64,000 nt of DNA, from the NCBI GenBank assembly GCA_937901225.1, contig CALCGX010000127.1, positions 12,643-76,642 on the forward strand, in the 5' to 3' direction. A model generated the notes under the pieces. The model worked only from the letters and a program-made list of their open reading frames with translations. It was not told where the DNA came from and made no database searches. Positions 3,368-49,633 of the stretch are shown here, one piece after another. Source of the stretch: an uncultured Bacteroidales bacterium. Its GTDB lineage: Bacteria > Bacteroidota > Bacteroidia > Bacteroidales > Paludibacteraceae. The position numbers and the translations under genes were made by a program. Position 1 is the first letter of the stretch. Every line of letters starts with the position of its first letter.

Positions 3368-5611
3368 TTAGAAAGTCGCCCCAGTATTCTTTTCTTCGGC
3401 TCCTGCATCTACTTTGTGCTCCTCTTCAAGCCAAAGCCATGTGGTATTACTTTCTTTGCCCAAGTACTGCACTTTGGCTTTTACGATTTTTGTACCTTCA
3501 GGCACTGCCACTGGCGCACTATATACTTGCCATTCGCCATCATCAAAGTTATAGAGTATCTCGCCACCTTCCATCACTTTGTTCATCGCCACGGTTAATG
3601 GCAAACTATCCACTGCCACTGGCTTCACACCGGGCTGTTGAATATGGAAATTACGACCGCTGGCTGCCAATTGTGGCACGAATACTTCATATACCAAGCG
3701 ATTGTATTCGCTCAAAGTCAATGCGCTGCGGTTGTTCCATGCGCGCTCTGCCAAACCGTAAATCTTTGGATAAATCTGCCACTCCACTTGCGCGAACGAA
3801 CGAATCACTTCGCCCCACAATTGCGCATTCATACCGATTACATTTGGGTGAATCAGTGGCTCCCAATCAAACGAACGATACTCATCGGTGTATCCACCCC
3901 AGTTGAGTCCTTTCTCTTCGTGGTGATTGCAGTATGCAAAGTCAAAGTACAAGCGGTTAGCGTTTGCTAATACCACGGGATAACCAGCCTCTGCCATCTC
4001 CAATGGCTTGGTATTGCTGTTGAGCCATGAGTAGCAAATGGCTTTGCTCTCGGGCTTGCAGAAGTGGGTGATTTCTTCCCAACCCATTGGTTGCAGGTTG
4101 TAGCGATTCAATATCTCCAACACCGCATCAATAAATGCCTGATGCTCCTCGCGTGTCAATGCACCCTTAGGTACTTCATCGCCACCAATGTTTAGTTGTG
4201 TCAATGGTTGTCCTGCCTCCTCGTGCATCTTCACCAACTCGGTCACGACATGGTCAATAAATTCCACTGCATAGGGCTTGGTTACATCAATCACATTGTC
4301 CGTATAGTTTTGTGCAGACTTATATACGCGAGCGTTGAACGCGCTGTCAGTCAGCATGTTACCCATTGCTTTCTTGGCTGCACGCATATGACCAGGCATG
4401 TCTATCTCTGGTATTACGCGGATGTGACGCTCGCCAGCGTATTTCAGCAATTCGATGTACTTCTCGCGTGTGATATAGCCATTGGCTGTGGTGGGCGCAT
4501 TAGGGTCCCAACCGCCACAATACATTGGCAGCAGACACTCGCTTTCATCGGTGGTATAACCGCGTTTAGAACCTATATCGGTCAGCTGTGGCAATCCTGG
4601 AATCTCCAATCGCCATGCCTCATCATCCGTCAAGTGGAAATGTAGCACATTCAGTTTGTGGTATGCCATGATGTCCAAAACGCGGTAGATAGAGTCCACG
4701 GGGTAGTAGTTGCGCACCACATCCAGCATGATACCGCGGTGGTGCAAGTCGGGGTAGTCGGTCACGCTGCCGCATGGCACCACTTCGCCCCATTGTTTCA
4801 ATGTCTGTTTGGCGTAGAACACACCTGCTTCATCGCTGGCTTCGATGGTGATTGTGCTTGGAGTAATAATCATGCGATAACCTTCCGCCACCATGTTCGC
4901 ATCGGTGCGAACGACCATTTCTGCCTTTGCCACTTCGCATACTCCTTCGGTATAAATAGCTTGCTTTGGCTGTGGCAACAACGGCTGCACAGCCTCTTTT
5001 CCAGCTCCCTTCCCTTCAGGGAGGGGGTGGGGGGCGGCTCTCTCGCCCAATACTCCTTCCACATAATCATACACATACGCACCTTCGGCGTAAGGTGTTT
5101 TCTCCCATGTTACGATACCTCGTTTCATCTGTTCTGGGCGCGTGAATGGCGCATAAGTGCAAGGGATACTAATTGGCTTCCCACTTTTCACCTTTCCGTT
5201 TTCCCCTTTCACCTTCACCAAGAAGAATCCCTCTGGGCGCGAAGTCTGACGGATGGCATTGCCTTTGAATAGCAACTTAAATGTTCGGCTGCTATCGGGC
5301 ATGAGTGGTTGAAAATCTTCCGTAGGTGTAATGCTGTGATAGCTGGCTTGCAATTCTGTTTGCAGAATTTGGTCGCCTTCTGTGTAGATAGGGTGGAGTG
5401 ACATGTAGTTGAAGTACAATATCCATCCTTCGTTGGTGATTGGTTTGTTCGAGTGGTTAGTGATGGTGTAGTAGAGTTCGCAAACTCCAGGTGTCACATC
5501 ATTCTTCCCCATTTCCCAGTGAATTGACATAGGAGGATTTTGAGTACATGATGCAAAGGTAATCATTGCTGTGATTCCTAAAAGACGTACAATGGCTTTC
5601 ATGATTTTCAA
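3368..5611 (-). CDS. GH20 beta-N-acetylhexosaminidase, secreted/lipoprotein
   Basis: HFHLTDDEAWRLEIPGL and NIGGDEVP are the GH20 catalytic blocks. Signal peptide with Cys (FASCTQ). 747 aa. Confidence 0.9.
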   Translation of the reverse strand: MKIMKAIVRLLGITAMITFASCTQNPPMSIHWEMGKNDVTPGVCELYYTITNHSNKPITNEGWILYFNYMSLHPIYTEGDQILQTELQASYHSITPTEDFQPLMPDSSRTFKLLFKGNAIRQTSRPEGFFLVKVKGENGKVKSGKPISIPCTYAPFTRPEQMKRGIVTWEKTPYAEGAYVYDYVEGVLGERAAPHPLPEGKGAGKEAVQPLLPQPKQAIYTEGVCEVAKAEMVVRTDANMVAEGYRMIITPSTITIEASDEAGVFYAKQTLKQWGEVVPCGSVTDYPDLHHRGIMLDVVRNYYPVDSIYRVLDIMAYHKLNVLHFHLTDDEAWRLEIPGLPQLTDIGSKRGYTTDESECLLPMYCGGWDPNAPTTANGYITREKYIELLKYAGERHIRVIPEIDMPGHMRAAKKAMGNMLTDSAFNARVYKSAQNYTDNVIDVTKPYAVEFIDHVVTELVKMHEEAGQPLTQLNIGGDEVPKGALTREEHQAFIDAVLEILNRYNLQPMGWEEITHFCKPESKAICYSWLNSNTKPLEMAEAGYPVVLANANRLYFDFAYCNHHEEKGLNWGGYTDEYRSFDWEPLIHPNVIGMNAQLWGEVIRSFAQVEWQIYPKIYGLAERAWNNRSALTLSEYNRLVYEVFVPQLAASGRNFHIQQPGVKPVAVDSLPLTVAMNKVMEGGEILYNFDDGEWQVYSAPVAVPEGTKIVKAKVQYLGKESNTTWLWLEEEHKVDAGAEEKNTGATF
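5003..5040. repeat. GC-rich palindromic element embedded in-frame in the GH20 gene (copy 1)
   Basis: The core cttcccttcagggagggg (5009-5026) is the exact reverse complement of 30415-30432. Flanking G/C runs are also shared. Confidence 0.7.
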
Positions 5612-5640
5612 TAAAAGTTAAACGCGATTCAATTTTTTTG

Positions 5641-5672
5641 CAAAGGTAAGTAATATTTTTGATATCTGCAAA
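5641..5672 (-). promoter_or_regulatory. Bacteroidota sigma-A promoter for the GH20 gene
   Basis: On the minus strand, a TACCTTTG -7 box (5641-5648) and a TTTG -33 box (5669-5672) with a 20-nt spacer. Confidence 0.55.
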
Positions 5673-5723
5673 TCTTTTTTCTTAACTTCTTGTGATGTGT
5701 TACGATGTTTTTGTTGTTGTGTT

Positions 5724-5798
5724 TCACCTATAAATCTTTAGTGATTCTTAGGTGATTCTTAGGTTATTCATAGGTGATTTATAGGTTATTCAGCATAC
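5724..5798. repeat. 11-bp-period tandem array, copy A (5 direct units plus 1 inverted unit)
   Basis: Units tctttagtgat, tcttaggtgat, tcttaggttat, tcataggtgat and ttataggttat occupy 5735-5789. The flanks tcacctataaa and tcagcatac are reverse complements of the flanks of array B at 42222-42328. Confidence 0.85.
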
Positions 5799-5932
5799 TT
5801 AACTATGCCTTTGCTAAGTTATACTTCAAATTTCAATGGTTGATTTCTGGCCAAAAGCAATCTTTTTTATTTCGCAATAATGTCATAAGAATAGGCGAAA
5901 TAATTACAAAATTTTATTTTTTTTCGAAAACG

Positions 5933-5964
5933 TTTGCAGGATTCAAAAAAAAACACTACCTTTG
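5933..5964 (+). promoter_or_regulatory. Bacteroidota sigma-A promoter for 6030..7502
   Basis: TTTG (5933-5936), a 20-nt spacer with A9, then TACCTTTG (5957-5964). About 85 percent identical to the promoter at 54472-54503. Confidence 0.6.
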
Positions 5965-6029
5965 TTGCCGATTTATGGATTTTGACTAACAAAAACACAA
6001 TCTTTTATATTAACTTAAAATTAGAAAAC

Positions 6030-7502
6030 ATGAAAAGAATTTTTATCTCTTTCCTCGCTGTTATAGCGATGGTAGGTATGGCAAATGCACAGCGCGTATG
6101 GGCGTACAATCTTGATTTAGAAGAGTCTGTTGGGGGACTTTCTATGTGCAAGTTTACTTTTGTTGCTACTGCTAATGCTACAACAGCTAATCTAGTCTTC
6201 TTTAATGCAGATGGTGTAGAGGTTGGCAAAGTAGCTGTGGAGAATGTTGTTAAGGGTGAGAATGTGGTGGAACTTAATCTTGATGCAATTCCTGGTCAAG
6301 GTGCTTTGAATTGGGCTGTGGAGCTGGCTGCTGAACCAATAGTAGAAATTACAGAGTTGACTGATGAGTCTGTGGATGTATTTCATTTCTACCTTTCACA
6401 AGGCGTAGCCATTAATAATAGTCCAGAGTCTGCACATTTTGGCAAAATTTACGTGGCTAATCCTCAGGTAGGTGCAGATGGAATGAGTGATTATACTAGC
6501 AACCAAGAACGTGGTATCTATGTGTTTGATCCACTTTTGAATTTGGAAAATGAGCCAGGTTATGGTTATTTGCCATTTGAGTTTTCGTTGGGCAATAGTT
6601 GGGATGCGATTCACCGCATAGCTGTTGATCCTAAAGATGGCACAGTCGCTTTTGCGAAATGGGATAAAGAGCCATTTTCTATTTATGCCGTTAGTCCTGA
6701 TAGTTTGAGTCCTGATGTGTGGTGGGATAATGTAGTGGACTTAACACCAGAATTGAACCAACCAGTATCTCTGTGCTATGACAAAGAGGGTACTTTGTGT
6801 GTGTTGTGTTATGATGCAAAGGGTCAAACTTCTTCTATTTATAGTATTTATAAGGTTCATGCTGATGGTACAACGGAGGCTGTGTTTACAGAAGAGGGTT
6901 GGATGGTTACTGGTCGTGCTGATATTGCTGCTGATGGACAAGGTGGCTATTGGGTGGTGACAAAAGCAACTGCCAACAATGATCCGACCGCTAAATTGAT
7001 GCATATTGGTCAAAATGGTATTGATTTTGAAGTTTCGAATGGTGCCGATACGTTGGGTATGCCAGAAAACTTTAACCGTGCTCAATTGGCATACGATATG
7101 AAGCGTGATATCTTGGCTATCGGTGGTGGCGGAAAGGTAACATTGTATAATGTGGCTTACGATGAGAATGGAGCCCCATTGATGGAGAAGTGGACAGAAA
7201 CTCCAATGTTTGATCCTGCAAAACCAGCATGGAATACGGACGGTATTGCATTTGACTATGCAGGCGATATGGTTGTGATGAGTGCATCCAACGAGCGCTT
7301 CTATAAATTTGCTATGCCAACCGATAATAATACTTGTACCACTCCGGCTCCAAAGACACAGTTAGTGTACAAGGGGGGGGATGAGACGGCTTTGCAAACG
7401 ACAACAACGGTAGAGCAAACTGCACGCAAAGTAATTATTGACGGACAATTATATATCCGCCGTGCGGGCAAATTGTATAATGCTATCGGTCAACAAAGAT
7501 AA
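6030..7502 (+). CDS. secreted beta-propeller-like protein (module Y) with a short T9SS-like C-terminal tail
   Basis: Signal peptide MKRIFISFLAVIAMVGMANA. The start is moved from the ORF-track 5934 to ATG 6030 because the promoter -7 box lies inside the longer ORF. It is a paralog of the N-terminus of 54567..58430 and of the C-terminal thirds of 9533..13303 and 50605..54342. Tail: KVIIDGQLYIRRAGKLYNAIGQQR. Confidence 0.8.
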   Translation: MKRIFISFLAVIAMVGMANAQRVWAYNLDLEESVGGLSMCKFTFVATANATTANLVFFNADGVEVGKVAVENVVKGENVVELNLDAIPGQGALNWAVELAAEPIVEITELTDESVDVFHFYLSQGVAINNSPESAHFGKIYVANPQVGADGMSDYTSNQERGIYVFDPLLNLENEPGYGYLPFEFSLGNSWDAIHRIAVDPKDGTVAFAKWDKEPFSIYAVSPDSLSPDVWWDNVVDLTPELNQPVSLCYDKEGTLCVLCYDAKGQTSSIYSIYKVHADGTTEAVFTEEGWMVTGRADIAADGQGGYWVVTKATANNDPTAKLMHIGQNGIDFEVSNGADTLGMPENFNRAQLAYDMKRDILAIGGGGKVTLYNVAYDENGAPLMEKWTETPMFDPAKPAWNTDGIAFDYAGDMVVMSASNERFYKFAMPTDNNTCTTPAPKTQLVYKGGDETALQTTTTVEQTARKVIIDGQLYIRRAGKLYNAIGQQR

Positions 7503-7515
7503 ATGATCTAATCAG

Positions 7516-7546
7516 GGAAGGGATGTTTTTTGTCCCTTCCTTTTTG
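7516..7546 (+). terminator. intrinsic terminator
   Basis: Hairpin ggaaggga / tcccttcc followed by T5. Confidence 0.65.
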
Positions 7547-7575
7547 TGTTTCAATGACTTAATAATGATTGCTTT

Positions 7576-9504
7576 ATGAATAAGAAAAATCTGCTTCTAT
7601 TGTGCTGTATGGTATTAGGCATTTTATGCGTATCTGCAGCTCCTAAAAGAGAGATGCGTGCAACATGGTTGACTGCTGTCGCAAATATTGATTGGCCAAT
7701 GTCTTCGACCAAAACAGTAGAGGCTCAACAGGCTGAATTATTAGAGTTGTTGGACGTATGCGTGGAAACGAATATGAATACCGTACTTTTGCATATTCGT
7801 CCTGCATGCGATGCCTTATATAAGTCTAAATATGAGCCATGGTCAAGCTATCTTAATCATGGGCGTGGCGTTGATCCTGGTTACGATCCATTGCAGTTCT
7901 GTATTGATGAGTGTCACAAGCGTGGATTGACATGCCATGGATGGATCAATCCATATCGCTATGGTAAGCGCGGTGGATACGATTGGACAGGCAATGATGA
8001 TACCACTCAATTGAATTACAAGCATACCCATCCAGAATGGTTGCTTTATTATAAAAATGATATTTACCTTGATCCTGCTCAACCCGAAGTGCGTCAGCGA
8101 ATCAAAGAGGTGGTGGGAGATATTATCAATAATTACGATGTGGATGGTATCTTGATGGATGACTACTTCTATCCATATGGTGGCACAACTAATCAAGATG
8201 CAGCTAGTGTAGAGAAATACAAACCTGCTGATATGAATGTGGGGGATTGGCGCCGTCAAAATGTCAATATGATGATCAAAGATGTCTATGATACCATTCA
8301 GGCGGTTAAACCTTGGGTGACGTTTGGTGTTTCGCCATTTGGTATTTGGACTACGGATTCTAATGTGGCACGAAAGCGCGGTATAAGACTGCCAAGTGGC
8401 ATCTCTGGTGGTAATATGTATGCTGAAATTTATTGCGATCCAGTAGCGTGGCTCGAAGAGGGAACGGTGGATTATATATCGCCACAGTTGTATTGGAAGG
8501 TTGGAGGTGGTCAAGATTACAAGCGATTGAGTCGTTGGTGGGCAGAACTTTGCAACCGTTTTGGTAAGCATTTTTATTCTAGCATGGCATTGTACAAATA
8601 TGAAGAGGGTGCAACAGGCTTTGCTATTAGTGATATCCGTCAGCAACTCGTTTATAATCGTGTAGTGACAGACAATGCGCCAGGTGCTGTATTCTACAAC
8701 ACGCGTGCATGGGCAGAATACAATGCGAAAAAGTTAAGAGTGAACTTAACTAAAAATGAAGCAGAGTTTCAATACATTGCTTTACCACCTGCGATCAACT
8801 GGAAACCTGCAAAAGAGCGCGTAATGGTGGAGAATTTAGCACTGAAAGGTCAAATGCTCTCATGGACACATGCGGATAAGGATGTGCACTTTGCGATATA
8901 TGCAGCAACAACGGATAGCGTGGGAACTTTCTCTATTGGCGAAACGTTGATAGGTGTTTCTTATACTACTTCATTCGAATTACCTGCTGGCATCAATCCA
9001 CAGGACTATCGCATCGGTGTGAGCGTGTTAGATAAATACAATAATGAATTCGCTTTACGTATCTTAGGAGAAGAATTGTTAACTCCTCAAGCACCAAAAT
9101 TGGTGTATCCTCGTGATGGCTATCCTTGTAAATTGCCTATTGTATTTGAATGGCAGGCGGTGGAAAAAGCGGATAGTTATATCATTCAAATAGCGCGTGA
9201 CGAGCAAATGCAAGACCTCTTAGCTGTGCAAGAAGTTGTCACAACTACCTTTTCTACTGACTTGCGTATCAATTTACAGCAATTACCTTTAGGAAATTAT
9301 TATTGGCGAGTGAAAGCACGTATTCCTAATGCAGGTGATACATGGAGCCCAGTTCGACGTGTAGAGTTTGCATTGGAAGATGCTGTGGATAACATTGAGG
9401 TAGAAATACCTGAATGTAAAAAGTACCTTGAAAATGGCTTACTACTAATCGAAAGAGAGGGGCGAATTTATAACTTATTAGGAAATGAAATAACAACAAA
9501 ATAA
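7576..9504 (+). CDS. glycoside-hydrolase-like family 10 (GHL10, YddW/YngK-like) protein with FN3-like domain and T9SS-like tail
   Basis: Signal peptide. The MRATWLTAVANIDWP block is typical of GHL10 (PF02638-type). C-terminal tail: LLLIEREGRIYNLLGNEITTK. Confidence 0.75.
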   Translation: MNKKNLLLLCCMVLGILCVSAAPKREMRATWLTAVANIDWPMSSTKTVEAQQAELLELLDVCVETNMNTVLLHIRPACDALYKSKYEPWSSYLNHGRGVDPGYDPLQFCIDECHKRGLTCHGWINPYRYGKRGGYDWTGNDDTTQLNYKHTHPEWLLYYKNDIYLDPAQPEVRQRIKEVVGDIINNYDVDGILMDDYFYPYGGTTNQDAASVEKYKPADMNVGDWRRQNVNMMIKDVYDTIQAVKPWVTFGVSPFGIWTTDSNVARKRGIRLPSGISGGNMYAEIYCDPVAWLEEGTVDYISPQLYWKVGGGQDYKRLSRWWAELCNRFGKHFYSSMALYKYEEGATGFAISDIRQQLVYNRVVTDNAPGAVFYNTRAWAEYNAKKLRVNLTKNEAEFQYIALPPAINWKPAKERVMVENLALKGQMLSWTHADKDVHFAIYAATTDSVGTFSIGETLIGVSYTTSFELPAGINPQDYRIGVSVLDKYNNEFALRILGEELLTPQAPKLVYPRDGYPCKLPIVFEWQAVEKADSYIIQIARDEQMQDLLAVQEVVTTTFSTDLRINLQQLPLGNYYWRVKARIPNAGDTWSPVRRVEFALEDAVDNIEVEIPECKKYLENGLLLIEREGRIYNLLGNEITTK

Positions 9505-9532
9505 ATTATTAACACTTAAATAACAATCAATC

Positions 9533-12500
9533 ATGAGAAAATTAGCACTATTATTTGGGCTACTTTTTGCAGTAATGCTTACTGCCCAAACCACCGTTAG
9601 TATTCGCGATCAAAAGATGGAAGTGAATCGTAATGGTGAAACGTATGTATTAGCACCTAATGGTGACGATGCCAGTTATTTCTGGGCAAGTGTTTCACCT
9701 GATGAAAAACATCTTGTTTATGTGACTGCTCGCTATGGCACTTTTGTCTGCGACATCAATGGCGAGAACGTTCGTTCAATGGGACGTATGAATGCGCCTA
9801 AATGGTTGGACAACAACCATGTATCAGGTATGCAAGAGTTTTATACGGGACATGATGAAATCGATTATATCCGTTATATTTCTCGTAACATCAATAGCCA
9901 TGATACGCGTGAATTGTCTGAGATTGAGCGTACTATTTTTATTGCTGCAGAAAATCAACGCTTAGCAGCAGCTAAAGAGCGCCAAATGAAGCGAATCGCA
10001 GCGAAAAAACAAGTAACTGCAAGAACCGATTTAAAAGGACTCAAAATATATCTTAATGCTGGACACGGTGGCTATGATAGCAATGACCGCAGTTGTTGGA
10101 CAGTTCCTGTGCCTGAAACTTGGAGCAATCCTAATGGTTATTGGGAGAGTAAGTCCAACCTGACTAAAGCATTGGCGCTTGAGGAAATGCTCAAGAAAGC
10201 TGGTGCTACTGTCATTATGTCACGTAGAACAAACAAATCTGGTGTACGTGATATTGAATACTATCCAGGCGCTACTGCTGCAGAAATAGCAGAGTTGAAG
10301 AATGGTGATGACCGCGATTTGAGTGCTATAGCAGAAGAGGCCAATGCAAACGATGTTGACCACTTCTTGTCTATTCACTCCAATGCATTGAATGGGCAAA
10401 CCAACTATCTTTTAATGCTCTATCACGGATACAATGACCAACCTACAGTTGCTCAAAGTGATAAGATGGCAGAGAGTAGTGGTAACATCCAGATTCAAAA
10501 CCCTCTGACCGTTTGGACTAGTCCAAAACCATTGTTGCGTGGTGATTTTACATTCTATGGTGATGATATGGGACTTGGAGTATTACGTCCTCTGACTGTG
10601 CCTGGCTTTTTGAGCGAAGGTAGTTTCCATGACTATGCTCCTGAAACTCACCGCCTTTGCAATGATGACTATTGTCGTCTTGAAGCCTTGCGTATGTACC
10701 AACACTTCCACAAGTGGTTTGAGGCTCCTCTTCCACAAACAGCTACCATTAGCGGTTGGGTGAAATCAAGCAATGAGTTGGTGGATGTATTGGGTGAACC
10801 TAAATTTGTATATGTTAAGAATAGTGATGACCAATGGTTGCCAATCAATGGTGCTAAAGTAGAGTTGTATAAAGGAACCACTAAGGTTGCTGAAAAAACA
10901 ACGGATAATTGGTACAATGGAGTGTTTGCATTCTACGATTTGACACCGGGTACATATAAACTAGTTGTTACCAAAGATAAATATGCTACTGTTACCACAG
11001 AGGTTACTGTAAAAGCAGAAGAGATCGCTGGTGTAAAAGTGCGTATGAAGAATATCCGTTTGCACTTGGAGGATTATCCAGAACAAGAGAATGATGCTGT
11101 CGCTTTGGATAAATATGAATTTGAGTTGGTGGAGACACTTCAAGCGAAATCAAATAATATTGTACGTGCTTTGCAACGCAATGGTAATTATTATGTTTTG
11201 GCAAATGGAGAAATCAAGAAAAGCAACGCAGATTTCTCTGTGACGACAGCTATACCATTGCCTGCAGGAGTGGAAATTTGCGATATAGCCTTTACTGCTG
11301 ACGATTATCTCGTAGCAAAAGCCAAAGATAAAGGCGCATTCTATACTTGGGATGAAAATCTGCAAAACCCAACACTTCTCTTCGAGGTAGCTTCTGTTAA
11401 GGGTAATTCTTTTGCTGTCAGTGGCGCGCGCTGGGAAAGTACATATTATCTTGGAGAAGGTACCAATATGCACAAGATTGTGTATAATGAAGATACGAAG
11501 AAAGCTACTGTTACTACCGAAACAGCTAAAGAAGATTTAACTGGCAAGCAACTGATGATTATGCCACAAGGTACTATCAGTACAGTTTATGGAGCTTCAT
11601 TCTTACGTTATGCGGATCGTATGTATATGGTTAAGCCAACAGGAAATAGCGATGCATTCCAATTGTACGATGTTACAGATGGTATCGCAAAAGCAAAGCC
11701 TGCAAGTGATGTCTATCCAGCTATATTTACAACAGATGCACCTGGTACACAAACAATGGCTTGGGTTGATGGATATACTATTCACGTGGCTACATTGGCA
11801 AATGGTTATAATTTGAAACATTACCAGACGCTTACCAGCCCTGTTGCTAACGTATTTGCAGGCGAAGTAGAATTCGATGGTAAAAATTTCTACTTCCGTT
11901 TAAATGAAGATGCTACAGATGTTAGTCTGACTATCGAGAAAAACAACGAAGTTGTACGTACTCATAGTTGGGGCGCGCTCAAAAAAGGTTTGCATAAGCA
12001 ATCCAATCCTTTCTGGGCTACAGCATTTGATCACTTTAGCATTGTAGCTACCGCACGTGCTGTATCTTTCCCTGTTAAGGTTAGCAATGATGATGAGATT
12101 TTCCAATTCTATGCTGCTCGTGGCGTAGCTGTGGATAAGACACCTACCAGTCCATACTTTGGTCGTATCTACGTAAGCAACTCTGTTGCTGGACAATGTA
12201 TAGAAGGTGAGGCTACTAAATACCGTAATTCTTCAATGGGTATCTTTGTGTTGAGTAATGACTTCACTGACATTACCAATCAAGGTGCTACTGGTTGGTT
12301 AGGTGGAGTAGAGTGGGGTGCTAACAACTCTAGTACCAATTATCAATTTGCATTAGCTCGTCCTGCTGTGGCTCCAGATGGCGATGTATTTGTGACTAGT
12401 TCTTCATACACATCTGCGGGTGTGTACATCATGAATCCTGCTAAGCCAGAGGCGACTTTCACACAAGTATTTGATGGACGTCGTTCGAAAGATAATGGCC

Positions 12501-16539: not shown

Positions 16540-16569
16540 TTGTTGAATCCTTTATATTTAGAATAAAAT

Positions 16570-18351
16570 ATGAAAAAGATATTATTATTGTCACTTACAG
16601 TACTGTTGATGTGCACTTTGGTTGGTTGCGAGGATTTTCTCAACCAACCTCCTTATGATGATTTTACAGATGCAGAGTATTGGAAAAATGAAGATCAAGC
16701 TCGTACATTTATGTATGGCTTCTATACATCAATCTTCTCTGGTTATGGTTCTGGTGCTTCACATGGGCAATTCTTAATGGGGCAAACATCCAACGATGAT
16801 TTTGCTTCGGATGTTGAGCAACAAGATTTGACTCCGCTGGTAATACCTGAGGCTGATGGTTCTTGGAGTTTTACTAATATCCGCAAAGCGAATTACGTAT
16901 TAGAGAATATTGATCGCATTGATGCTAATGCTGCGGCCAAAAATCACTGGCGTGGTGTAGCGCGTTTCTTCCGTGCTTGTTATTATAGCAACCTCGTGTT
17001 CCGTTATGGTGATGTGCCTTGGTATGATCGTGTGCCTGCATTGAGCGATAATGATTATCTCTACAAGGATCGTGATTCACGCACGTTTGTAGATTCTTGC
17101 ATCATGGCAGATTTCCAATATGCAATGGATAGTGTGCGTGCGAATGATGGTAACTTGCAAATCAATAAGTATGTGGTAGCAGCAATGGCATCACGACTTC
17201 TTTTGCGCGAAGGAACATTCCTCAAATACCATAATTTAGATCAAGCCATGGCAGAGCAATGCCTTACGATGGCTAAGAATGCAGCAGAATTAGTAATGAA
17301 GTCGGGCAAGTATGCTGTTGCATCATCCTATAAGAACCTCTTTGTGAGCGAAGATCTGAGTACGAATCCTGAGATTATTATGTATCGTCAGTATGAGGAT
17401 GGTTTATTAGCGCACTCTACACTAGCATATTCTTATACCGAAGCACAAGCTGGTTTGAGCAAATCCCTCGCAGAGGATTTTGTGAATGCCAACGGCTTGC
17501 CTATATACGCTGAAAATGCGAAATGGTTAGCGAAAACGAGTGAAGACTTCTTTGCTAATCGTGACCCTCGTCTTGCAATGTGCATTCGCAATCATTATTG
17601 TATCAAAGGAGAGAGCCTTACTCCGTTCTCATATGCACTCTCTGGATATGCATGGAATAAGTTTATGGATGATAGCAAGGCTGGAGAGAAAAATCCTACA
17701 TGGGCAAGAGAAAAGAATACTACCGATGCACCTTGCGTGCGCTATGCTGAGGTATTGCTCAACTATGTGGAAGCTGCATATGAATTGCATCTTATGTCTA
17801 AATACACCTTTACACAAGCTGATTTGGATAAGTCAATCAATCTCATTCGTGCGCGTGCAGATGTGAACTTGCCTGCATTGCAAATGTTGGGTGATCAACC
17901 TGCTATAAACGGTGTAGCATTTGATGATCCTAAACGCCTGCAAATAGAGCAAAAAGCCAATGATGGTAAATTGATTACCCCATCTTTACTTTGGGAAATT
18001 CGTCGTGAACGACGTGTGGAATTATGTTTGGAAGGCTTCCGTCTCAACGACCTCAAGCGTTGGTGCAAGTTGGATTATATGTGGAATGAATGTAATCCAG
18101 ATATTCGCTATGGTGCATACATTCGTGTAAGCGACTACAAGAATAAGGATAAAGAGATTATCCTTGCAGGTAAGGTAGATCCACTCACCAACGATACTGT
18201 GACCAAAGAGGGGTATATTTTGCGTAATACTTTAGGAAAGCGTAATCGTCCAATTAAGCGTAATTATATCAATCCTATTCCTTCGGGACAAATTACGTTA
18301 TACAAATCCAAAGGATATACATTGTCTCAAAATACAGAATGGGGTTGGTAA
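16570..18351 (+). CDS. SusD/RagB-family nutrient-binding lipoprotein
   Basis: Lipobox LVGC followed by EDFLNQPPYDDFTDAEYW. Position immediately after SusC. 593 aa. Confidence 0.85.
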   Translation: MKKILLLSLTVLLMCTLVGCEDFLNQPPYDDFTDAEYWKNEDQARTFMYGFYTSIFSGYGSGASHGQFLMGQTSNDDFASDVEQQDLTPLVIPEADGSWSFTNIRKANYVLENIDRIDANAAAKNHWRGVARFFRACYYSNLVFRYGDVPWYDRVPALSDNDYLYKDRDSRTFVDSCIMADFQYAMDSVRANDGNLQINKYVVAAMASRLLLREGTFLKYHNLDQAMAEQCLTMAKNAAELVMKSGKYAVASSYKNLFVSEDLSTNPEIIMYRQYEDGLLAHSTLAYSYTEAQAGLSKSLAEDFVNANGLPIYAENAKWLAKTSEDFFANRDPRLAMCIRNHYCIKGESLTPFSYALSGYAWNKFMDDSKAGEKNPTWAREKNTTDAPCVRYAEVLLNYVEAAYELHLMSKYTFTQADLDKSINLIRARADVNLPALQMLGDQPAINGVAFDDPKRLQIEQKANDGKLITPSLLWEIRRERRVELCLEGFRLNDLKRWCKLDYMWNECNPDIRYGAYIRVSDYKNKDKEIILAGKVDPLTNDTVTKEGYILRNTLGKRNRPIKRNYINPIPSGQITLYKSKGYTLSQNTEWGW

Positions 18352-18405
18352 TCCTAATGTGAGTAAACTTAATAAAAATAATAGAACTAATTTTAATTAT
18401 CAATC

Positions 18406-20181
18406 ATGAAAAAGAATTTATTTTTCCTCAGTATGGCGGTCTTGAGCATGCTGATGGTTGGTTGTAGTGAACCAGAACAACAAGTCGGTGAAGCTTTGAT
18501 TAAGAATATCTCTATCAAAAATACCACTTGTCAAGGCAAAGTAGATAATACAGCTTTTACAGTTGTATTTGATGAAGTTCCTGCTGAGACACCAGTTGAA
18601 GCATTGCAATTTGATGGTAAATACTCATTAGGAGCAAGTTTGGAGAAAAAAGAATATGACTTCAGTAAGGGCTCATCTGAAGATGGTAAGCAATATATTG
18701 GTACAATTACAGTTGTAAATGGTACTGTATCGCAAGAATATCAGGTAACGCTTAATCTAACTGATCCTACATCAGATCCTAAATTGGTCAAATTAGTGAT
18801 GCAAAAGGCAGATGGAACAAATGTTGATGCACGTGTGTTGGCTGATGCAGAACCATTAGCCGTTGCACTAAATATGGAGGATGCTGATGAAGCTACTTTT
18901 GTAAGTGTTGAACTATATCCTGCACGTGCTTCATATTCTTTTACAGAGGCTATTGATGGTAAGATAACCAAAGATAATCCTGGTCAATTGGTAGTAGAGT
19001 TTATGGGAAGAAAATCATTCTATAACATTACTTTTGCAGCAGCTCCAGCACCAGGTGCAGACCTTACATCACCAATTATACATGATTTTTCTGTAACAAC
19101 GGAGAATACATATGTTGATTTTACAACCCTTACAGAGGGTGCTCTAAATACTCGAGGTTCGGACTTTGATGGAGAGCATGTGCTGATTGTTTCTCGTTCT
19201 GACAATGCAACTCCTACCCATCACCTCTTGAAAGTAAGCGATTTACTCAATGGAACAATCTCTCCAATTGAATTAAGCAAAGAGGGTATAGGTAATGCAG
19301 AAACAGATATGTTTGTTGTTAGCGCAGGTCGTTTAAGCCATGGACATATCTATGTATGTAACCTTGCAACTGCTTTGGGTGATGGACATACATTGAAAGT
19401 ATATCACTATGCGGATGCAACTGCTACTCCCGATGTTTGGGAATGGGATGGAACAGGTTTGGTTGATTTGAATGGTGAGGAAACATTTGTAGTACCTCGT
19501 TTAGGTGATAATATGTCTATTAACTTGGATGAGAATGGTAATGGCTATGCGTTCTTCTGCGGACAGGAGGCTTCTGCGGAACGTATCTATCGTATAGATG
19601 TTGCTAACTTCAACGAATTTTCCAATCCAACTGAAATTACTCTAGAAGAGGCTTTCCTATATTATGGTTATGTAAATCAAGTGGATGAAGATCGTTATTT
19701 GTTGACGAGTCACTATATGCTTTCGACATGGTTGATTGATAAGGATGGTAATCCACTTGTGTATATAGATTTCCAATCTACAGCAGCTGGTTTAAAACCA
19801 CACACAGGAGTTGATCCTCATGTTGTGAAGTACAATGGCGGTTATTACCTTATCTTTGCTTCTCCTTATAACAATACGAAACGTCTTGGCGTTGGTCCAG
19901 CTTTATATATGATTGATATTACCGAAGGCACTCAAGTAGATATTCAAACTGCCTTGCAAAATTTATCGGACACTTTGTGGTTTGATGAAGAAGGTATATG
20001 GGAACCTGATTTCCATTACTCATTAGATGTACTAAATATGGAAGCGGAACCGGCATCTCGTAAAACTGTTGCTGCTTGCGCAGCACAATGTAATGCTGCT
20101 GTCGTAAATGGTAAATTATTAGTGTATGCAGCAGCCGTTGGTGCTGGCTTTACTATCTTAGAGTTTTCTCCTGCGAAATAA
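18406..20181 (+). CDS. PUL-associated surface lipoprotein carrying a copy of module X (SGBP position)
   Basis: Lipobox MVGCSEP. The C-terminal half aligns by eye with module X of the T9SS cargo proteins through the blocks TPTHHLL, ELSKEGI, LKVYHYADATATPDVWEWD and LYMIDITEG. Confidence 0.7.
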   Translation: MKKNLFFLSMAVLSMLMVGCSEPEQQVGEALIKNISIKNTTCQGKVDNTAFTVVFDEVPAETPVEALQFDGKYSLGASLEKKEYDFSKGSSEDGKQYIGTITVVNGTVSQEYQVTLNLTDPTSDPKLVKLVMQKADGTNVDARVLADAEPLAVALNMEDADEATFVSVELYPARASYSFTEAIDGKITKDNPGQLVVEFMGRKSFYNITFAAAPAPGADLTSPIIHDFSVTTENTYVDFTTLTEGALNTRGSDFDGEHVLIVSRSDNATPTHHLLKVSDLLNGTISPIELSKEGIGNAETDMFVVSAGRLSHGHIYVCNLATALGDGHTLKVYHYADATATPDVWEWDGTGLVDLNGEETFVVPRLGDNMSINLDENGNGYAFFCGQEASAERIYRIDVANFNEFSNPTEITLEEAFLYYGYVNQVDEDRYLLTSHYMLSTWLIDKDGNPLVYIDFQSTAAGLKPHTGVDPHVVKYNGGYYLIFASPYNNTKRLGVGPALYMIDITEGTQVDIQTALQNLSDTLWFDEEGIWEPDFHYSLDVLNMEAEPASRKTVAACAAQCNAAVVNGKLLVYAAAVGAGFTILEFSPAK

Positions 20182-20201
20182 TCAACTATAACAACATTAT
20201 G

Positions 20202-20230
20202 CATAGAGGCTGCGTGCAGCAGCCTCTATG
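20202..20230 (+). terminator. hairpin at operon end (weak T-tail)
   Basis: A 12-bp perfect stem, catagaggctgc / gcagcctctatg. Confidence 0.45.
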
Positions 20231-20263
20231 TTGTAACTGTAAACAACAGAAAATACTCATAAT

Positions 20264-21142
20264 ATGAGAAAAGGTCTCTTATCGCTCATCTTGTTTCTAT
20301 TGGCAACAATACTTTCAGCCCAAAACATAATGAAAGTGTGGAGCAACGATACACTTATTGAATTTGATATATCTACGATAGATAGCATTACATTTGAAGT
20401 CAAAACAGAATATGTAGGAGTATTTTCTGTAGCAAACAATAAAAGGGTTGCTTTTGCGCCGGGCAACTTGCAATACATTCCTACAGCAGATACTTGGCTC
20501 TTTGCTGCTAATCAGTACGATTATATTGGTACACGCAATATGGTCAATCAAGCGTTTGCCGATACAATAGATTTATTTGCTTGGAGCACAGATACCGACC
20601 CTTCTACCGCATGGGGTGTGACCTTAGAGGATGATAACAACCTCTATGCGGGTAATTTCGTAGATTGGGGCACTACTATTGGTGATGGCAATACATGGCG
20701 TACACTTACGTCTGCAGAGTGGGAATATATGCGTGCTAAGCGTCCTAATGCTTCCAAACTCATTGGAGTTGGTTCAATCAATGGCATACATGGATTAATT
20801 CTCCTTCCTGATGGCTGGATTGCTCCAGATGGTATTACTTTTAAAAGTGGATACAGCGACAAGGAGTATAGTGCTATTGCTTTTGAAGAGTACCAATCCT
20901 TTACCATCGAACAGTGGAATACGATGCAAGCTGCGGGTGCAGTCTTCTTGCCTTGTGCTGGCTTCCGATTGGGGACTTCGTTAGCATATATGCAAATGGC
21001 AGGATTGTATTGGACTTCCTCGCCACATGCAGCATATGGTCCACAGTTTGCTAGTTACTTCCTCTTTATGTGCGATGGCGCAGGTATTGGATACGACACG
21101 CGTAGTGGCGGCAATGCAGTACGATTGGTTAAGGACTTGTAA
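20264..21142 (+). CDS. secreted hypothetical protein, FISUMP/DUF1566-like (weak call)
   Basis: Signal peptide. The blocks FAPGNLQY, WRTLTSAEWEYM, FLPCAGFR and LYWTSS resemble the Fibrobacter major paralogous domain pattern. Confidence 0.6.
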   Translation: MRKGLLSLILFLLATILSAQNIMKVWSNDTLIEFDISTIDSITFEVKTEYVGVFSVANNKRVAFAPGNLQYIPTADTWLFAANQYDYIGTRNMVNQAFADTIDLFAWSTDTDPSTAWGVTLEDDNNLYAGNFVDWGTTIGDGNTWRTLTSAEWEYMRAKRPNASKLIGVGSINGIHGLILLPDGWIAPDGITFKSGYSDKEYSAIAFEEYQSFTIEQWNTMQAAGAVFLPCAGFRLGTSLAYMQMAGLYWTSSPHAAYGPQFASYFLFMCDGAGIGYDTRSGGNAVRLVKDL

Positions 21143-21168
21143 TACAATAGGCATCAAAAACTAGTTAT

Positions 21169-22353
21169 ATGAAAAAAATCATTTCTCTTTTGGCTTTGTG
21201 CTGTTGCGCAATGATTATTGTTGCGGCGGAAAATGTTAAAGTTGGAGCAGAGCAAACCAAACAATATCTACCTTTGCTCAAAGGTAAACGTGTCGCGTTG
21301 ATGAGCAATCATACAGGCATTGTTATCCAAGGACAAGATACTATTCACACGCTTGATTTGTTACTCAAGCATGGTGTGAATGTTACTGCTATTTTCTCTC
21401 CTGAGCATGGTTTCCGTGGTACTGCACGCGAGGGCGAACATGTAGCAAGTAGCGTAGATGAGAAGACAGGCATACCTATTCTGTCGCTCTATGATGGTAA
21501 GAGTTACCGTCCTTCTAAAGAAGCAATGGCCACTTTTGATGTGCTTATCACCGACATCCAAGATGTAGGACTGCGTTTCTATACCTATTATATTACGATG
21601 TTTCGCCTCATGGACGCATGCGCACACGAAGGTAAGCAGTTTATCGTCTTCGACCGACCAAACCCTAATGGTTACTATGTGGATGGTCCTATCCTTGATA
21701 TGAAGCACAAATCTGGCGTGGGTGCATTGCCTATCCCTGTGGTGCATGGTATGACCTTGGGTGAACTGGCATTGATGATCAATGGTGAGAACTGGCTATA
21801 CGATTCGCTCCAAGTGGACCTGACTGTCATTCCTTGCAAAAATTATACTCACCAAACGTTATATCGTCTGCCAGTAGCGCCTTCGCCTAACCTACGCAAC
21901 ATGCTTTCTATTTACCTCTATCCTGCTGTGTGCTTGTTTGAGGCAACCCCTGTGTCTTTAGGTCGAGGTACGGATAAGCCATTCTTGTGCTATGGTCACC
22001 CCAATTTCAATGCGCCTCGCACCGAACCAAGTGCATATGGTCCTGCTATCACTTTCACGCCTAATCAATCTACTCAAAAAGGTCGCATTTGCGATGGTGT
22101 AGATCTCAGTGGTATGACCGAAGAAGAGGCACGTAAGGTAGGTTTCTCTTTGCGCTATCTGTTAGATGCTTACAAACATCTCAATATGGACAACTATTTC
22201 TTCCGTCCTTTCTTTGAGTTGTTGGTGGGACAAGATTATGTGCGTAAGATGATCAATCAAGGTAAGAGTGAGGAAGATATTCGTGCTTGCTGGCAAGAAG
22301 ATGTCGCTAAGTTCCAAGAGCAACGTCGTCCATATCTCCTCTACGAAGAATAA
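21169..22353 (+). CDS. DUF1343 / NamZ-like exo-beta-N-acetylmuramidase (GH171-type)
   Basis: LLKGKRVALMSNHTG, FSPEHGFRG and ITDIQDVGLRFYTY are characteristic DUF1343 blocks. Signal peptide present. Confidence 0.8.
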   Translation: MKKIISLLALCCCAMIIVAAENVKVGAEQTKQYLPLLKGKRVALMSNHTGIVIQGQDTIHTLDLLLKHGVNVTAIFSPEHGFRGTAREGEHVASSVDEKTGIPILSLYDGKSYRPSKEAMATFDVLITDIQDVGLRFYTYYITMFRLMDACAHEGKQFIVFDRPNPNGYYVDGPILDMKHKSGVGALPIPVVHGMTLGELALMINGENWLYDSLQVDLTVIPCKNYTHQTLYRLPVAPSPNLRNMLSIYLYPAVCLFEATPVSLGRGTDKPFLCYGHPNFNAPRTEPSAYGPAITFTPNQSTQKGRICDGVDLSGMTEEEARKVGFSLRYLLDAYKHLNMDNYFFRPFFELLVGQDYVRKMINQGKSEEDIRACWQEDVAKFQEQRRPYLLYEE

Positions 22354-22356
22354 TTT

Positions 22357-22394
22357 GTCTAACAGCCGTAAGCGGTCTAAAGTCTAACTTCTAA
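22357..22394. repeat. GTCTAA-type six-frame stop cassette (copy 1)
   Basis: gtctaaagtctaacttctaa lies at 22375-22394, with TAA every 7 nt on the plus strand and TAG every 7 nt on the minus strand. A near-identical 20-mer is at 29716-29735. Confidence 0.7.
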
Positions 22395-22401
22395 AAAATA
22401 T

Positions 22402-23853
22402 ATGAATTCATTAACTATTTTATTAGTCATTGCAGCTTATTTTGCGCTGCTGTTTTTTATTTCGTATTTAGCAGGACGTAAGGCAGACAATGCAGGTTTT
22501 TTCTCAGGAAACCGCAGTAGCAATTGGCTACTGGTAGCCATGTCCACCATTGGTGCTGCTATCTCGGGGGTCACTTTTGTAAGTGTACCAGGTATGGTTG
22601 CCACATCGGGTTGGGCATATATGCAGATGGTGCTTGGTTTCACCGTAGGTCAATTCTTGATTGCCTATGTACTTATCCCATTGTACTACAAACTCAACCT
22701 TACATCCATTTACCAATACCTCCAACAGCGTTTTGGCATGAATACCTACAAGTCGGGTGCTTGGCTCTTCTTTGTGAGCAAGATGCTTGGCGCTAGTGTG
22801 CGCTTGTTTGTGGTAAGCGAAGTGCTTCAGTTGTTGGTGTTCGATCGTTTAGCAGTGCCTGTCCCATTCTGGGTAAATGCCATTATTACTGTACTCATCG
22901 TGTATCTCTGCACCTTCAAGGGGGGCGTTAAGTCGCTCATATGGACAGATTTGCTCAAGACCTGCTGTCTTATCCTGTCTGTGGCTCTCTGCATCTACTT
23001 TGTGCTGCGCGCGGGCGTGAATATAGAAGGTTGGGGAGCAAGTGATATGACCCGCACCTTCTTCTTCGATGACCCTAAGAGCGGTAACTACTTCTGGAAA
23101 CAATTCCTGGCGGGTGTCTTCCTCGTGATTGCTACCACTGGTCTTGATCAAGACCTCATGCAGCGAACACTCTCATGCAAGAACCCACGCGAGAGTCAAA
23201 AGAACCTCATCGTAGGTGCACTCATGCAAATCGTAGTGATTGGTCTCTTCCTTTTCTTGGGTTATTTGCTCTATACCTATGCTGCTCAAACGGGTGTTGC
23301 CGAAGTTGCCAACCTCAAGGGCGATGAGGTATTCCCATTCTTGGCTACGGGCAACTACTTCCCTGTGATTGTGGGTGTCCTCTTTATTATCGGTTTTATC
23401 GCAGCGGCATATTCCGCAGCGGGTGGAGCCTTGACGGCACTAACAACCTCGTTCACGGTGGATATTCTCAACAAGGAGAAGGCCGACAACCTTACCAAAG
23501 TACGCACCATAGTGCACATAGGCATGGCTATACTGATGGCTGCTTGTATCTATGTCATCCACCTATTGAATGATGATTCGGTGATTCAAACCGTATATAA
23601 AGTTGCAAGTTATACCTATGGTCCATTGTTGGGTATGTTCTGTTTTGGTATCTTTACCAAGCAGCAAGTACGCGACCGTTGGATTCCATTGGTAGTGATA
23701 GCTGCACCTGTAATCACATGGATTATTGATGTCAATTCAGCCGTATGGTTTAATGGTTATGTGTTCTCTCACGAGCGCTTAATCTTGAATGCGCTACTCA
23801 CGTTTGTAGGTATGCTTTGCTTGTTGAATAGCACTGCAAAGCCAACCAAATAA
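22402..23853 (+). CDS. sodium:solute symporter (SSS) family transporter
   Basis: 483 aa, about 12-13 hydrophobic helices, SSS-like N-terminal region. The family call is from overall pattern only. Confidence 0.65.
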   Translation: MNSLTILLVIAAYFALLFFISYLAGRKADNAGFFSGNRSSNWLLVAMSTIGAAISGVTFVSVPGMVATSGWAYMQMVLGFTVGQFLIAYVLIPLYYKLNLTSIYQYLQQRFGMNTYKSGAWLFFVSKMLGASVRLFVVSEVLQLLVFDRLAVPVPFWVNAIITVLIVYLCTFKGGVKSLIWTDLLKTCCLILSVALCIYFVLRAGVNIEGWGASDMTRTFFFDDPKSGNYFWKQFLAGVFLVIATTGLDQDLMQRTLSCKNPRESQKNLIVGALMQIVVIGLFLFLGYLLYTYAAQTGVAEVANLKGDEVFPFLATGNYFPVIVGVLFIIGFIAAAYSAAGGALTALTTSFTVDILNKEKADNLTKVRTIVHIGMAILMAACIYVIHLLNDDSVIQTVYKVASYTYGPLLGMFCFGIFTKQQVRDRWIPLVVIAAPVITWIIDVNSAVWFNGYVFSHERLILNALLTFVGMLCLLNSTAKPTK

Positions 23854-23871
23854 CATGGTGATATATAAAGC

Positions 23872-23906
23872 AATAGGGTGTGCATCAGCACACCCTATTT
23901 GTTTTT
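23872..23906. terminator. bidirectional terminator between convergent SSS gene and rpoD
   Basis: A 12-bp perfect stem, aatagggtgtgc / gcacaccctatt, plus a T-run. Confidence 0.65.
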
Positions 23907-24781: not shown

Positions 24782-24870
24782 GTAGTACAGTTAACAATTA
24801 ATAATTAATAGTTAATATTTGAAAAGCAATCATAATTCTTAATTCAAAATTAATAATTATCCTTGCTTTG

Positions 24871-24944
24871 TGATCCGGTCGGGATTCGAACCCGAGACCC
24901 ACAGCTTAGAAGGCTGTTGCTCTATCCAGCTGAGCTACCAGACC
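24871..24944 (-). tRNA. tRNA-Arg (anticodon TCT)
   Basis: Manual cloverleaf fold. Acceptor GGTCTGG/CCGGATC, anticodon loop CTTCTAA, T-loop TTCGAAT. 74 nt, no encoded CCA. Confidence 0.85.
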
Positions 24945-42182: not shown

Positions 42183-42188
42183 CAAAAA

Positions 42189-49607: not shown

Positions 49608-49633
49608 AATAGATAGAAAGAAACACATTTTTT

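Follow-up and report, generated by a model that had tools for sequence, protein, structure and literature searches.

The 64,000-nucleotide (64-kb) stretch of contig CALCGX010000127.1 analyzed here, to which we refer as the window, derives from an uncultured gut bacterium of the family Paludibacteraceae (Bacteroidales). Within it, a SusC/SusD pair is encoded together with several enzymes that are predicted to take peptidoglycan apart, and this locus is the subject of our analysis. An initial annotation, made from the letters of the sequence alone, had described a SusC/SusD operon associated with peptidoglycan-cleaving enzymes and had proposed profile searches as a check. These searches, against Pfam and NCBIfam, bore out the gene set and the families, and all the named open reading frames (ORFs) lie at the positions first assigned to them.

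The gene cluster occupies the plus strand and may open with a gene for a secreted protein of about 490 amino acids (aa) at 6030-7502, in an ORF that opens at 5934 and has its likely start, MKRIF, at 6030. It is followed by the genes for a secreted GHL10 enzyme of 642 aa (7576-9504; Pfam GHL10, PF02638, E 6.4e-64, 216 bits), a secreted multidomain amidase of 1256 aa (9533-13303; Pfam Amidase_3, 48.5 bits, and CarboxypepD_reg), a TonB-dependent transporter of the SusC/RagA type (13300-16539; TIGR04056, E 2.5e-248, 827 bits, with the SusC signature and the Pfam Plug, barrel and CarbopepD_reg_2 domains), a SusD-family lipoprotein (16570-18351; Pfam SusD_RagB, E 2.4e-30, and SusD-like_3) and a DUF4623 lipoprotein (18406-20181; Pfam DUF4623, E 5.9e-47). 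Next comes a gene for a secreted 292-aa protein without a family assignment (20264-21142), which holds the same position in close relatives. The two genes reported downstream, for a NamZ (DUF1343, GH171) protein with a signal peptide and for an inner-membrane symporter of the sodium/solute symporter (SSS) family, are both supported by profile matches (21169-22353, NamZ_N, E 6.5e-75, and NamZ_C, E 3.2e-34; 22402-23853, Pfam SSF, E 1.5e-23, and TIGR00813, E 1.3e-45). A GH20 beta-N-acetylhexosaminidase is encoded divergently upstream, on the minus strand, again as described (3368-5611; Pfam Glyco_hydro_20, E 1.8e-79, and GH20b).

The genes from GHL10 through amidase, SusC and SusD to DUF4623 are as tightly packed as the annotation had indicated, with gaps of 28, -4, 30 and 54 nucleotides (nt). 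The negative value corresponds to the overlap of the amidase stop codon with the SusC start codon, ATGA at 13300-13303; of 14 related loci with both genes, 12 retain the overlap, as judged from tblastn and match coordinates. The operon had been proposed to end at 20181, but the same-strand cluster runs on through the 292-aa protein, NamZ and the symporter, with gaps of 82, 26 and 48 nt. A scan for terminator-like hairpins detected none between the genes from 7576 to 23872, and the cluster is closed by a strong bidirectional hairpin at 23872-23899 (12-bp stem with 6 G-C pairs), the only strong terminator-like intergenic hairpin from 7576 to 23899. The genes from GHL10 through the symporter thus probably form a single transcription unit.

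This unit may start farther upstream, at about position 5957, ahead of the gene for the ~490-aa protein, and read through an internal hairpin, because the only plus-strand match to TAnnTTTG, the -7 promoter element of Bacteroidetes, precedes that gene. The match, TACCTTTG at 5957-5964, which comes from a pattern search and is a match to the consensus only, lies 66 nt 5' of the ATG at 6030 and is the sole plus-strand TAnnTTTG in the intergenic DNA searched; the pattern is absent from the plus strand of the gap at 7503-7575 before GHL10. A mirror element for GH20 is located at 5641-5648 on the minus strand. The internal hairpin (7514-7542, plus strand; 12-bp stem followed by a T-run), detected in the same scan as the closing one, lies between the genes for the ~490-aa protein and GHL10 and could act as an attenuator, as a partial terminator or in stabilizing the RNA. 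A scan for sigma-70-type promoters was uninformative, with 51 sites found against 54 expected. The promoter region shared by GH20 and the ~490-aa protein also contains an 11-nt tandem repeat (5741-5792; consensus GTGATTCATAG, 4.7 copies). We rejected it as an operator: among the related loci, which we number with the prefix L, it occurs only in the two closest (5 copies in L001 and 3 in L002) and is absent farther off.

SusC and SusD are adjacent, separated by 30 nt, as expected of a polysaccharide utilization locus (PUL), and they are accompanied by the second defining feature of such loci, co-localized enzymes, here GHL10, NamZ (GH171), Amidase_3 and the divergent GH20. According to Pfam, SusC has no STN domain. 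In both the SusD and the DUF4623 lipoproteins, the signal, which ends in ...LVGC and ...MVGC, respectively, is followed by acidic residues (EDFLN and SEPEQ). An acidic stretch after the cysteine is typical of surface-exposed lipoproteins of Bacteroidota, which suggests that the DUF4623 protein is exposed on the cell surface; furthermore, its gene occupies the position that is usually taken, in PULs, by the gene for a surface glycan-binding protein. The DUF4623 protein is similar to an uncharacterized protein in the Protein Data Bank (PDB; 4ftd, E 4e-26) and weakly similar to propeller modules, with a marginal profile-profile match to the propellers of the amidase (probability 50%). No paper mentioning DUF4623 was found in the full text searched, outside of which most subscription journals lie. 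The 292-aa protein had no match in Pfam or NCBIfam, with hits accepted up to E <= 10, and is syntenic in L001-L006, L015, L035, L100 and L101. It was also considered as a Fibrobacter-type paralogous domain; no model matched, and we claim no family for it.

The 1256-aa amidase consists of, in order, a PD40/TolB-like fragment (residues ~21-120), a long helix, the Amidase_3 domain (~165-400), a transthyretin-like domain (~405-505), tandem beta-propellers (~521-1205) and a 35-aa C-terminal tag. The Pfam match to Amidase_3 (PF01520) covers residues 172-378 and scores 48.5 bits against a cut-off of 27. The motif blocks that had been reported as intact, GHGG, YWES, SIHSN and LSEG, are indeed present and correspond to H178, E205, H282 and E362. 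These four residues, the first three of which we take to be the zinc ligands and the last the catalytic glutamate, are invariant in all 24 aligned family members, including a 37%-identical paralogue. A phmmer search of the PDB with the whole protein gave no match. When the family profile was used instead, it matched CwlD (7e-7), LytH, AmiB and AmiA, with the four residues aligned to metal and catalytic positions; the counterparts are GHGG of LytH, sEkdiN and SIHLNA of CwlD, and LVETGF of AmiB. In an AlphaFold model of residues 1-520 (predicted local distance difference test score (pLDDT) of 81), which also displays the N-terminal TolB/PD40-like fragment and the transthyretin-like domain, Foldseek recognized CwlD, LytH, AmiC2 and CwlV (E 1e-8 to 7e-7; target-normalized TM-scores 0.72-0.80); two insert loops, 186-205 and 366-375, were modeled with low confidence. 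We therefore predict that the protein is an N-acetylmuramoyl-L-alanine amidase with the Amidase_3 fold.

The rest of the amidase, residues 521-1256, was modeled with a pLDDT of 86.8 and gave tandem-propeller matches. Similar modules occur elsewhere in the window. The ~490-aa secreted protein, which belongs to no family in Pfam or NCBIfam and has relatives in many related loci, can be aligned over its residues 148-470 with amidase residues 855-1203, in the second propeller region (BLASTP E 1e-23), and shares 35% identity with the N-terminal portion of a 1287-aa protein encoded at 54567-58430. The propeller modules of the amidase, the ~490-aa protein and the 1287-aa protein probably bind substrate. 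In L003-L006 and L015, the amidase homologues comprise about 1710 aa and are ~450 residues longer at the C-terminus. This extension is homologous to a separate propeller protein of L017 that is linked to the type IX secretion system (T9SS), which indicates that propeller modules have been shuffled between separate genes and fusions.

Residues 21-99 of the amidase (window positions 9593-9829) are an 80-residue remnant of PD40. Most other lineages encode PD40 on its own, as a protein of about 300 aa whose gene lies directly 5' of the amidase gene, and the same holds for a paralogous pair in the window, which suggests a lineage-specific deletion and fusion. This unlinked pair (49781-54342, plus strand; identified with Pfam) consists of a 275-aa PD40 beta-propeller protein (49781-50608; 40% identical to residues 21-99 of the first amidase) and a second Amidase_3 protein of 1245 aa (50605-54342), with overlapping stop and start codons and no SusCD alongside. 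The second amidase is 27% identical to the first over 1265 columns (E 9e-73). The pair belongs to a second cluster without SusCD, at 42945-58430, which also includes the genes for a 2220-aa secreted protein (no Pfam match, a weakly T9SS-like C-terminus) and for the 1287-aa protein, a mosaic whose residues 907-1204 share 55% identity with a portion of the second amidase.

The assignment of a GHL10-like hydrolase stands and can be made more specific. Residues 24-380 of the protein (357 residues) match Cwp19 of Clostridioides difficile (PDB 5oq2) with an E-value of 1.3e-79 and are followed by a C-terminal extension of ~260 aa and a short C-terminal tag. Cwp19, the only well-characterized GHL10 enzyme, lyses Micrococcus and yields 1,6-anhydromuropeptides, which identifies it as a peptidoglycan lytic transglycosylase (PMC5765458, PMC6016235). 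Nine of the 13 residues proposed to form its pocket are identical in the window protein (W36, W127, R132, D195, D196, Y197, S250, Q295 and Y297; compared with PMC5765458); the other four differ. From its homology to Cwp19, we annotate the GHL10 protein as a putative Cwp19-like lytic transglycosylase or muramidase.

The NamZ protein is far more similar to BfNamZ2 (PDB 4jja, E 4e-160) than to BfNamZ1 (4k05, E 2e-46) and, by sequence, is of the BfNamZ2/TfNamZ2 type, which releases N-acetylmuramic acid (MurNAc); the clade assignment follows bioRxiv 10.1101/2021.12.02.470905. Presumably, it resides in the periplasm. NamZ enzymes need peptide-free glycan, and those of the TfNamZ2 type release free MurNAc only from a MurNAc non-reducing end. 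Such an enzyme therefore requires the prior action of an amidase and of an enzyme that removes N-acetylglucosamine (GlcNAc), and the locus would supply both. The GH20 protein, a plausible exo-GlcNAc-ase for the peptidoglycan glycan, is a lipoprotein (signal ...ITFASC, then TQNPP) with the catalytic motif GGDE; its gene is divergently upstream in most close relatives and adjacent in L017 and L120. The symporter gene lies 48 nt downstream of namZ, and this pairing is kept in other families: orthologues 58-75% identical to the symporter are encoded beside NamZ in Bacteroides salyersiae, Bacteroides sp., Dysgonomonadaceae and more distant Paludibacteraceae, and in closer relatives the identity reaches 99%. 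In Tannerella forsythia, namZ1 and murT are likewise adjacent, and TfMurT is, we assume, a member of the SSS family. By analogy, the symporter is a candidate MurT-like importer of MurNAc.

The annotation had the amidases delivered by the T9SS, and this detail was not upheld. When the C-terminal 100 residues of the amidase, GHL10, the propeller protein and the second amidase were searched against Pfam and NCBIfam, none of them matched a model of a T9SS sorting domain (PF18962, TIGR04183, type B, type C), even at E <= 10. Many homologues do carry Por_Secre_tail (PF18962), and the window amidase ends in a 35-residue remnant that aligns to the last strands of their sorting domain. Short non-canonical tags terminate four secreted proteins of the window (7440-7502, 9430-9504, 13200-13303 and 58365-58430). 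The propeller protein (...DGQLYIRRAGKLYNAIGQQR), GHL10 and the 1287-aa protein have in common the tag ..(D/N)GQLxIxRxGKxYNxxGxx; that of the amidase ends in ..GVYTLFGQYLGESENGLPHGVYIINGKKVIK. Other amidase orthologues end either in a ..NGQLxIxRxGKxYNxxGxx tag or, at the same position, in a full T9SS type A sorting domain. The tags had no match in Pfam or NCBIfam and are interchangeable from one orthologue to the next; they may constitute a sorting signal of a minimal or novel kind. Export of the amidase, GHL10 and the propeller protein beyond the outer membrane is plausible. An amidase homologue of Bacteroides salyersiae DSM 18765 (L075, 9944-13828) has a clear Por_Secre_tail (E 3e-14); most Bacteroides are not known to have a T9SS.

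The initial annotation had also proposed to examine the conservation of the gene neighborhood across Bacteroidales. The closest public relatives, with 94-99.7% amino acid identity across the locus, are Paludibacteraceae metagenome-assembled genomes from ruminant and other animal guts. Scanning species-representative genomes with the amidase domain as the anchor yielded at least 586 loci. The loci fetched include 43 of at least 15 kb, of which 35 contain GHL10, 38 PD40, 23 SusC, 19 SusD and 17 DUF4623. With DUF4623 as the anchor, 46 loci were obtained from Paludibacteraceae, Dysgonomonadaceae, Bacteroidaceae (including Bacteroides nordii JCM 12987), Muribaculaceae, Porphyromonadaceae and Prevotellaceae; in the 35 of at least 15 kb, SusC-SusD always precede DUF4623 (35/35), and an amidase-type protein (33/35), NamZ (16/35) and the symporter (11/35) are found alongside. 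The linkage is thus seen with either anchor, and the cassette recurs, with its order shuffled, in at least six families.

The arrangements are diverse: SusC-SusD-DUF4623-GHL10-PD40-amidase in Prevotella, FecR / STN-SusC-SusD-DUF4623-PD40-amidase-GHL10 in a Porphyromonadaceae genome, PD40-amidase-NamZ-symporter in B. salyersiae DSM 18765, GHL10-PD40-amidase-propeller-SusC-SusD-DUF4623 in Bacteroides nordii JCM 12987 (L033/L123) and GHL10-PD40-amidase-propeller-SusC-SusD-DUF4623-NamZ in L017. Because the gene order differs between families, we take the linkage to be selected, not inherited by inertia. Directly 5' of the L017 cassette are genes for SpoIID, GH20, MR_MLE (L-Ala-D/L-Glu-epimerase-type), NlpC/P60 with SH3, GntR and a MurQ-like SIS protein; a MurQ-like SIS gene adjoins the cassette in L036 as well. 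We regard this rearrangement-proof linkage, together with neighbors implicated by their families in the catabolism of peptidoglycan peptides and MurNAc, as the strongest evidence for a peptidoglycan substrate. Copies of the locus that are 65-83% identical are filed under Mycobacteriaceae, Acidaminococcaceae and Muribaculaceae bins (L010, L027 and L104-L106); at least the Mycobacteriaceae and Acidaminococcaceae filings are probably binning errors.

Pfam scans of the window ORFs agree with the earlier observation that no hybrid two-component system (HTCS) gene and no extracytoplasmic function (ECF) sigma/anti-sigma gene is located near the locus. A sigma factor gene at 23921-24781 on the minus strand resembles, by inspection, an RpoD-type primary sigma factor. 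In a human-gut Porphyromonadaceae genome (L088, 969-14120), the cassette includes a FecR anti-sigma gene and an STN-domain SusC. Given this FecR/STN-SusC arrangement, the GntR genes in L017 and L090 and the lack of a detectable counterpart in the window, the regulator of the cassette seems to differ from lineage to lineage. A search of the window with Rfam revealed no riboswitch and no RNA element apart from two tRNAs, tRNA-Arg(TCT) at 24870-24944 on the minus strand and tRNA-Pro(CGG) at 42110-42183 on the plus strand.

Taken together, these observations make it quite probable that the locus is a peptidoglycan-targeting PUL. This interpretation draws on the homology of GHL10 to Cwp19, the active site and fold of the amidase, the adjacency of NamZ and the symporter as in T. 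forsythia, the conserved linkage and the L017 neighbors. The proposal that the SusCD pair imports peptidoglycan fragments released by T9SS-delivered amidases, for scavenging from other bacteria or MurNAc acquisition, is accordingly supported by the enzyme families, the active sites and the conserved linkage; delivery by the T9SS has only indirect support, through homologues, and the imported species and the purpose are inferred.

On this interpretation, the secreted amidase would strip every stem peptide from MurNAc, dissolving the cross-links and leaving naked glycan strands, which the secreted Cwp19-like GHL10 enzyme would cut into oligosaccharides. The propeller modules of the amidase and the ~490-aa protein, along with the DUF4623 lipoprotein, would hold the substrate at the cell surface, and SusD with SusC would bind (GlcNAc-MurNAc)n oligomers free of peptides and bring them into the periplasm. 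There, non-reducing GlcNAc and MurNAc would be taken off in turn by the GH20 lipoprotein and NamZ, and the SSS symporter would move MurNAc to the cytoplasm for processing by enzymes of the MurK and MurQ types, whose genes would lie elsewhere.

Several points weigh against this interpretation. No linked substrate-sensing regulator (HTCS, ECF/anti-sigma, SusR, GntR and the like) was found in the 64-kb window, and neither were MurK, MurQ and AmpG among its scanned ORFs (no AmpG-type protein of the major facilitator superfamily, BadF-type kinase or SIS etherase). Many homologues of the amidase, such as those of Paludibacter, are not encoded beside SusCD. Four of the 13 Cwp19 pocket residues differ in the window protein (Q77->H, G328->S, F367->Y, S368->N). 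The specificity of GHL10 is not settled, given that Cwp19 is a slow enzyme and that another GHL10 member is reported to act on starch (PMC9967864). The role of the symporter is proposed from its position rather than from orthology to TfMurT, and, as no T9SS model matches the ends of the amidase, GHL10 and the propeller protein, an extracellular location of these proteins is deduced only from homologues and alignment. GH20 is not the usual family for removing GlcNAc from peptidoglycan. Overall, peptidoglycan use by the locus is predicted from sequence.

Alternative explanations share much of the same evidence. The machinery might serve a mainly anabolic role, the salvage of MurNAc or GlcNAc-MurNAc from neighbors to build the bacterium's wall, as happens in T. 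forsythia, a MurNAc auxotroph that grows on the muropeptides of other bacteria (PMC5388701) and whose namZ1-murT arrangement the NamZ-symporter pair mirrors. The failure to find the catabolic MurQ gene in the window fits this explanation as well, but SusCD uptake of high capacity, combined with several large enzymes that are secreted, is more in keeping with nutrient harvest, and L017 combines the cassette with a MurQ-like etherase and peptide-catabolic genes; salvage as the main role is therefore a minority view, although one we take seriously. We give less credence to a bacteriolytic system directed against living neighbors, especially Gram-positive ones, in which uptake through SusCD would be secondary. 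The conserved linkage to NamZ and the transporter and the overlap of the amidase and SusC genes point to uptake as the selected function, and an immunity-like gene is not evident, even though the large multidomain secreted proteins have propellers of the binding type, a paralogous amidase and giant secreted proteins are encoded at other places in the window that have no SusCD, many homologues are separate from SusCD, and Cwp19 does cause lysis (PMC6016235).

The substrate might also be a different amino-sugar polymer, such as chitin or chito-oligosaccharides, host N-glycans or a poly-beta-1,6-GlcNAc (PNAG) matrix, in which case the amidase and NamZ annotations would be misleading. Chitobiose, N-glycans and PNAG are common substrates of GH20 enzymes, the specificity of GHL10 is poorly defined, and the closest structural neighbor of Cwp19 is the C-terminal domain of PgaB (PMC5765458). 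We nevertheless deem this very improbable: the locus contains no GH18, GH19 or GH84-type genes, the active site of Amidase_3 is complete and does not vary, NamZ matches BfNamZ2 at 4e-160, and the MurQ-like, NlpC/P60 and epimerase-type neighbors in L017 are peptidoglycan-related. Least credible of all is that the amidase and GHL10 are housekeeping autolysins acting on the cell's own wall, next to SusCD by accident. Amidase_3 proteins and lytic transglycosylases are classic enzymes of division and turnover, but incidental proximity is hard to reconcile with a SusCD-DUF4623 linkage that persists, in shuffled order, in six families and with the conserved stop/start overlap with SusC; moreover, the 1256-aa architecture is unlike that of AmiA/B/C, and the T9SS sorting domains of the homologues send cargo outside the outer membrane.

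Comparison with known systems places the proposed peptidoglycan PUL between several precedents. It shares with the T. forsythia cluster lytB-ampG-namZ1-murT-murK-murQ (Tanf_08345-08385), likewise from Bacteroidales, a NamZ-family gene beside an inner-membrane MurNAc-type transporter and a predicted purpose, the exploitation of the peptidoglycan of other bacteria. However, SusC/SusD, the amidase, GHL10 and DUF4623 are found in the window only and are not among the listed genes of that cluster, whereas AmpG, MurK and MurQ are encoded there and were not found in the window; the NamZ of the window is of the NamZ2 rather than the NamZ1 type, and the hybrid two-component regulator GppX that controls the T. 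forsythia operon has no counterpart seen in the window. To our knowledge, the outer-membrane uptake step of T. forsythia has not been defined.

The logic of an exo-GlcNAc-ase, a MurNAc-L-Ala amidase and NamZ acting from non-reducing ends, with subsequent uptake of MurNAc, is the same in amiE-nagZ-namZ / murQRP of Bacillus subtilis. That organism, however, is Gram-positive, with no outer membrane or SusCD; its AmiE is not an Amidase_3 multidomain protein, its NagZ is of family GH3 rather than GH20, and its transporter, MurP, belongs to the phosphotransferase system instead of the SSS family. With canonical PULs of Bacteroidota, the locus has in common SusC/SusD followed by a surface lipoprotein, endo-enzymes, periplasmic exo-glycosidases and an inner-membrane transporter, all in one direction. 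It differs from them in the peptide amidase and GHL10, in having no HTCS, ECF/anti-sigma or SusR-type regulator, and in its predicted substrate, a cross-linked bacterial glycopeptide rather than a plant, host or algal glycan. Cwp19 has a homologous catalytic domain and shares most of the proposed pocket residues with GHL10 of the window; unlike the latter, which has a different C-terminal extension and tag and belongs to a Gram-negative uptake locus, it is an autolysin anchored to its own wall by CWB2 repeats. By analogy, the locus can be viewed as a Sus-type PUL joined to the NagZ/AmiE/NamZ logic of B. subtilis and to the NamZ-MurT module of T. forsythia.

In line with the earlier statement that no characterized SusCD locus with such wiring was known, we found none in the searchable full text, with most subscription journals outside the search. 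Nor did this text yield a characterized or experimentally described peptidoglycan PUL: the candidate papers mention peptidoglycan only in passing or, in the case of metagenomic papers, through counts of GH23, GH73 and GT51. As far as the searchable literature shows, no outer-membrane route of peptidoglycan uptake has been characterized in Bacteroidota. A bolder possibility, to which we are drawn only tentatively and which we consider somewhat more doubtful than not, is that the locus is the first recognized outer-membrane peptidoglycan import system of this phylum, a "peptidoglycan utilisome" with wide conservation: a surface-tethered amidase and GHL10 would dismantle foreign sacculi or living Gram-positive cells, SusCD-DUF4623 would import the denuded strands, the bacterial cell wall would be a major PUL substrate, so far unassigned, in the gut and rumen, and the C-terminal tags would be a new minimal sorting signal replacing the T9SS domain.

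Peptidoglycan is among the most abundant polymers of the gut and rumen, and its fragments are potent immune signals, ligands of NOD1/NOD2. The cassette is present in the cultured Bacteroides nordii and, in part, in B. salyersiae and is thus genetically tractable. If the locus is indeed a peptidoglycan PUL, functions could be assigned to DUF4623 and to the GHL10 proteins of Gram-negative bacteria, and the outer-membrane step missing from MurNAc scavenging of the Tannerella type would be supplied. Such a system would explain how abundant Bacteroidales recycle necromass and how fragments cross the outer membrane in MurNAc scavengers, and it could change the amount of immunostimulatory muropeptide that reaches the host.

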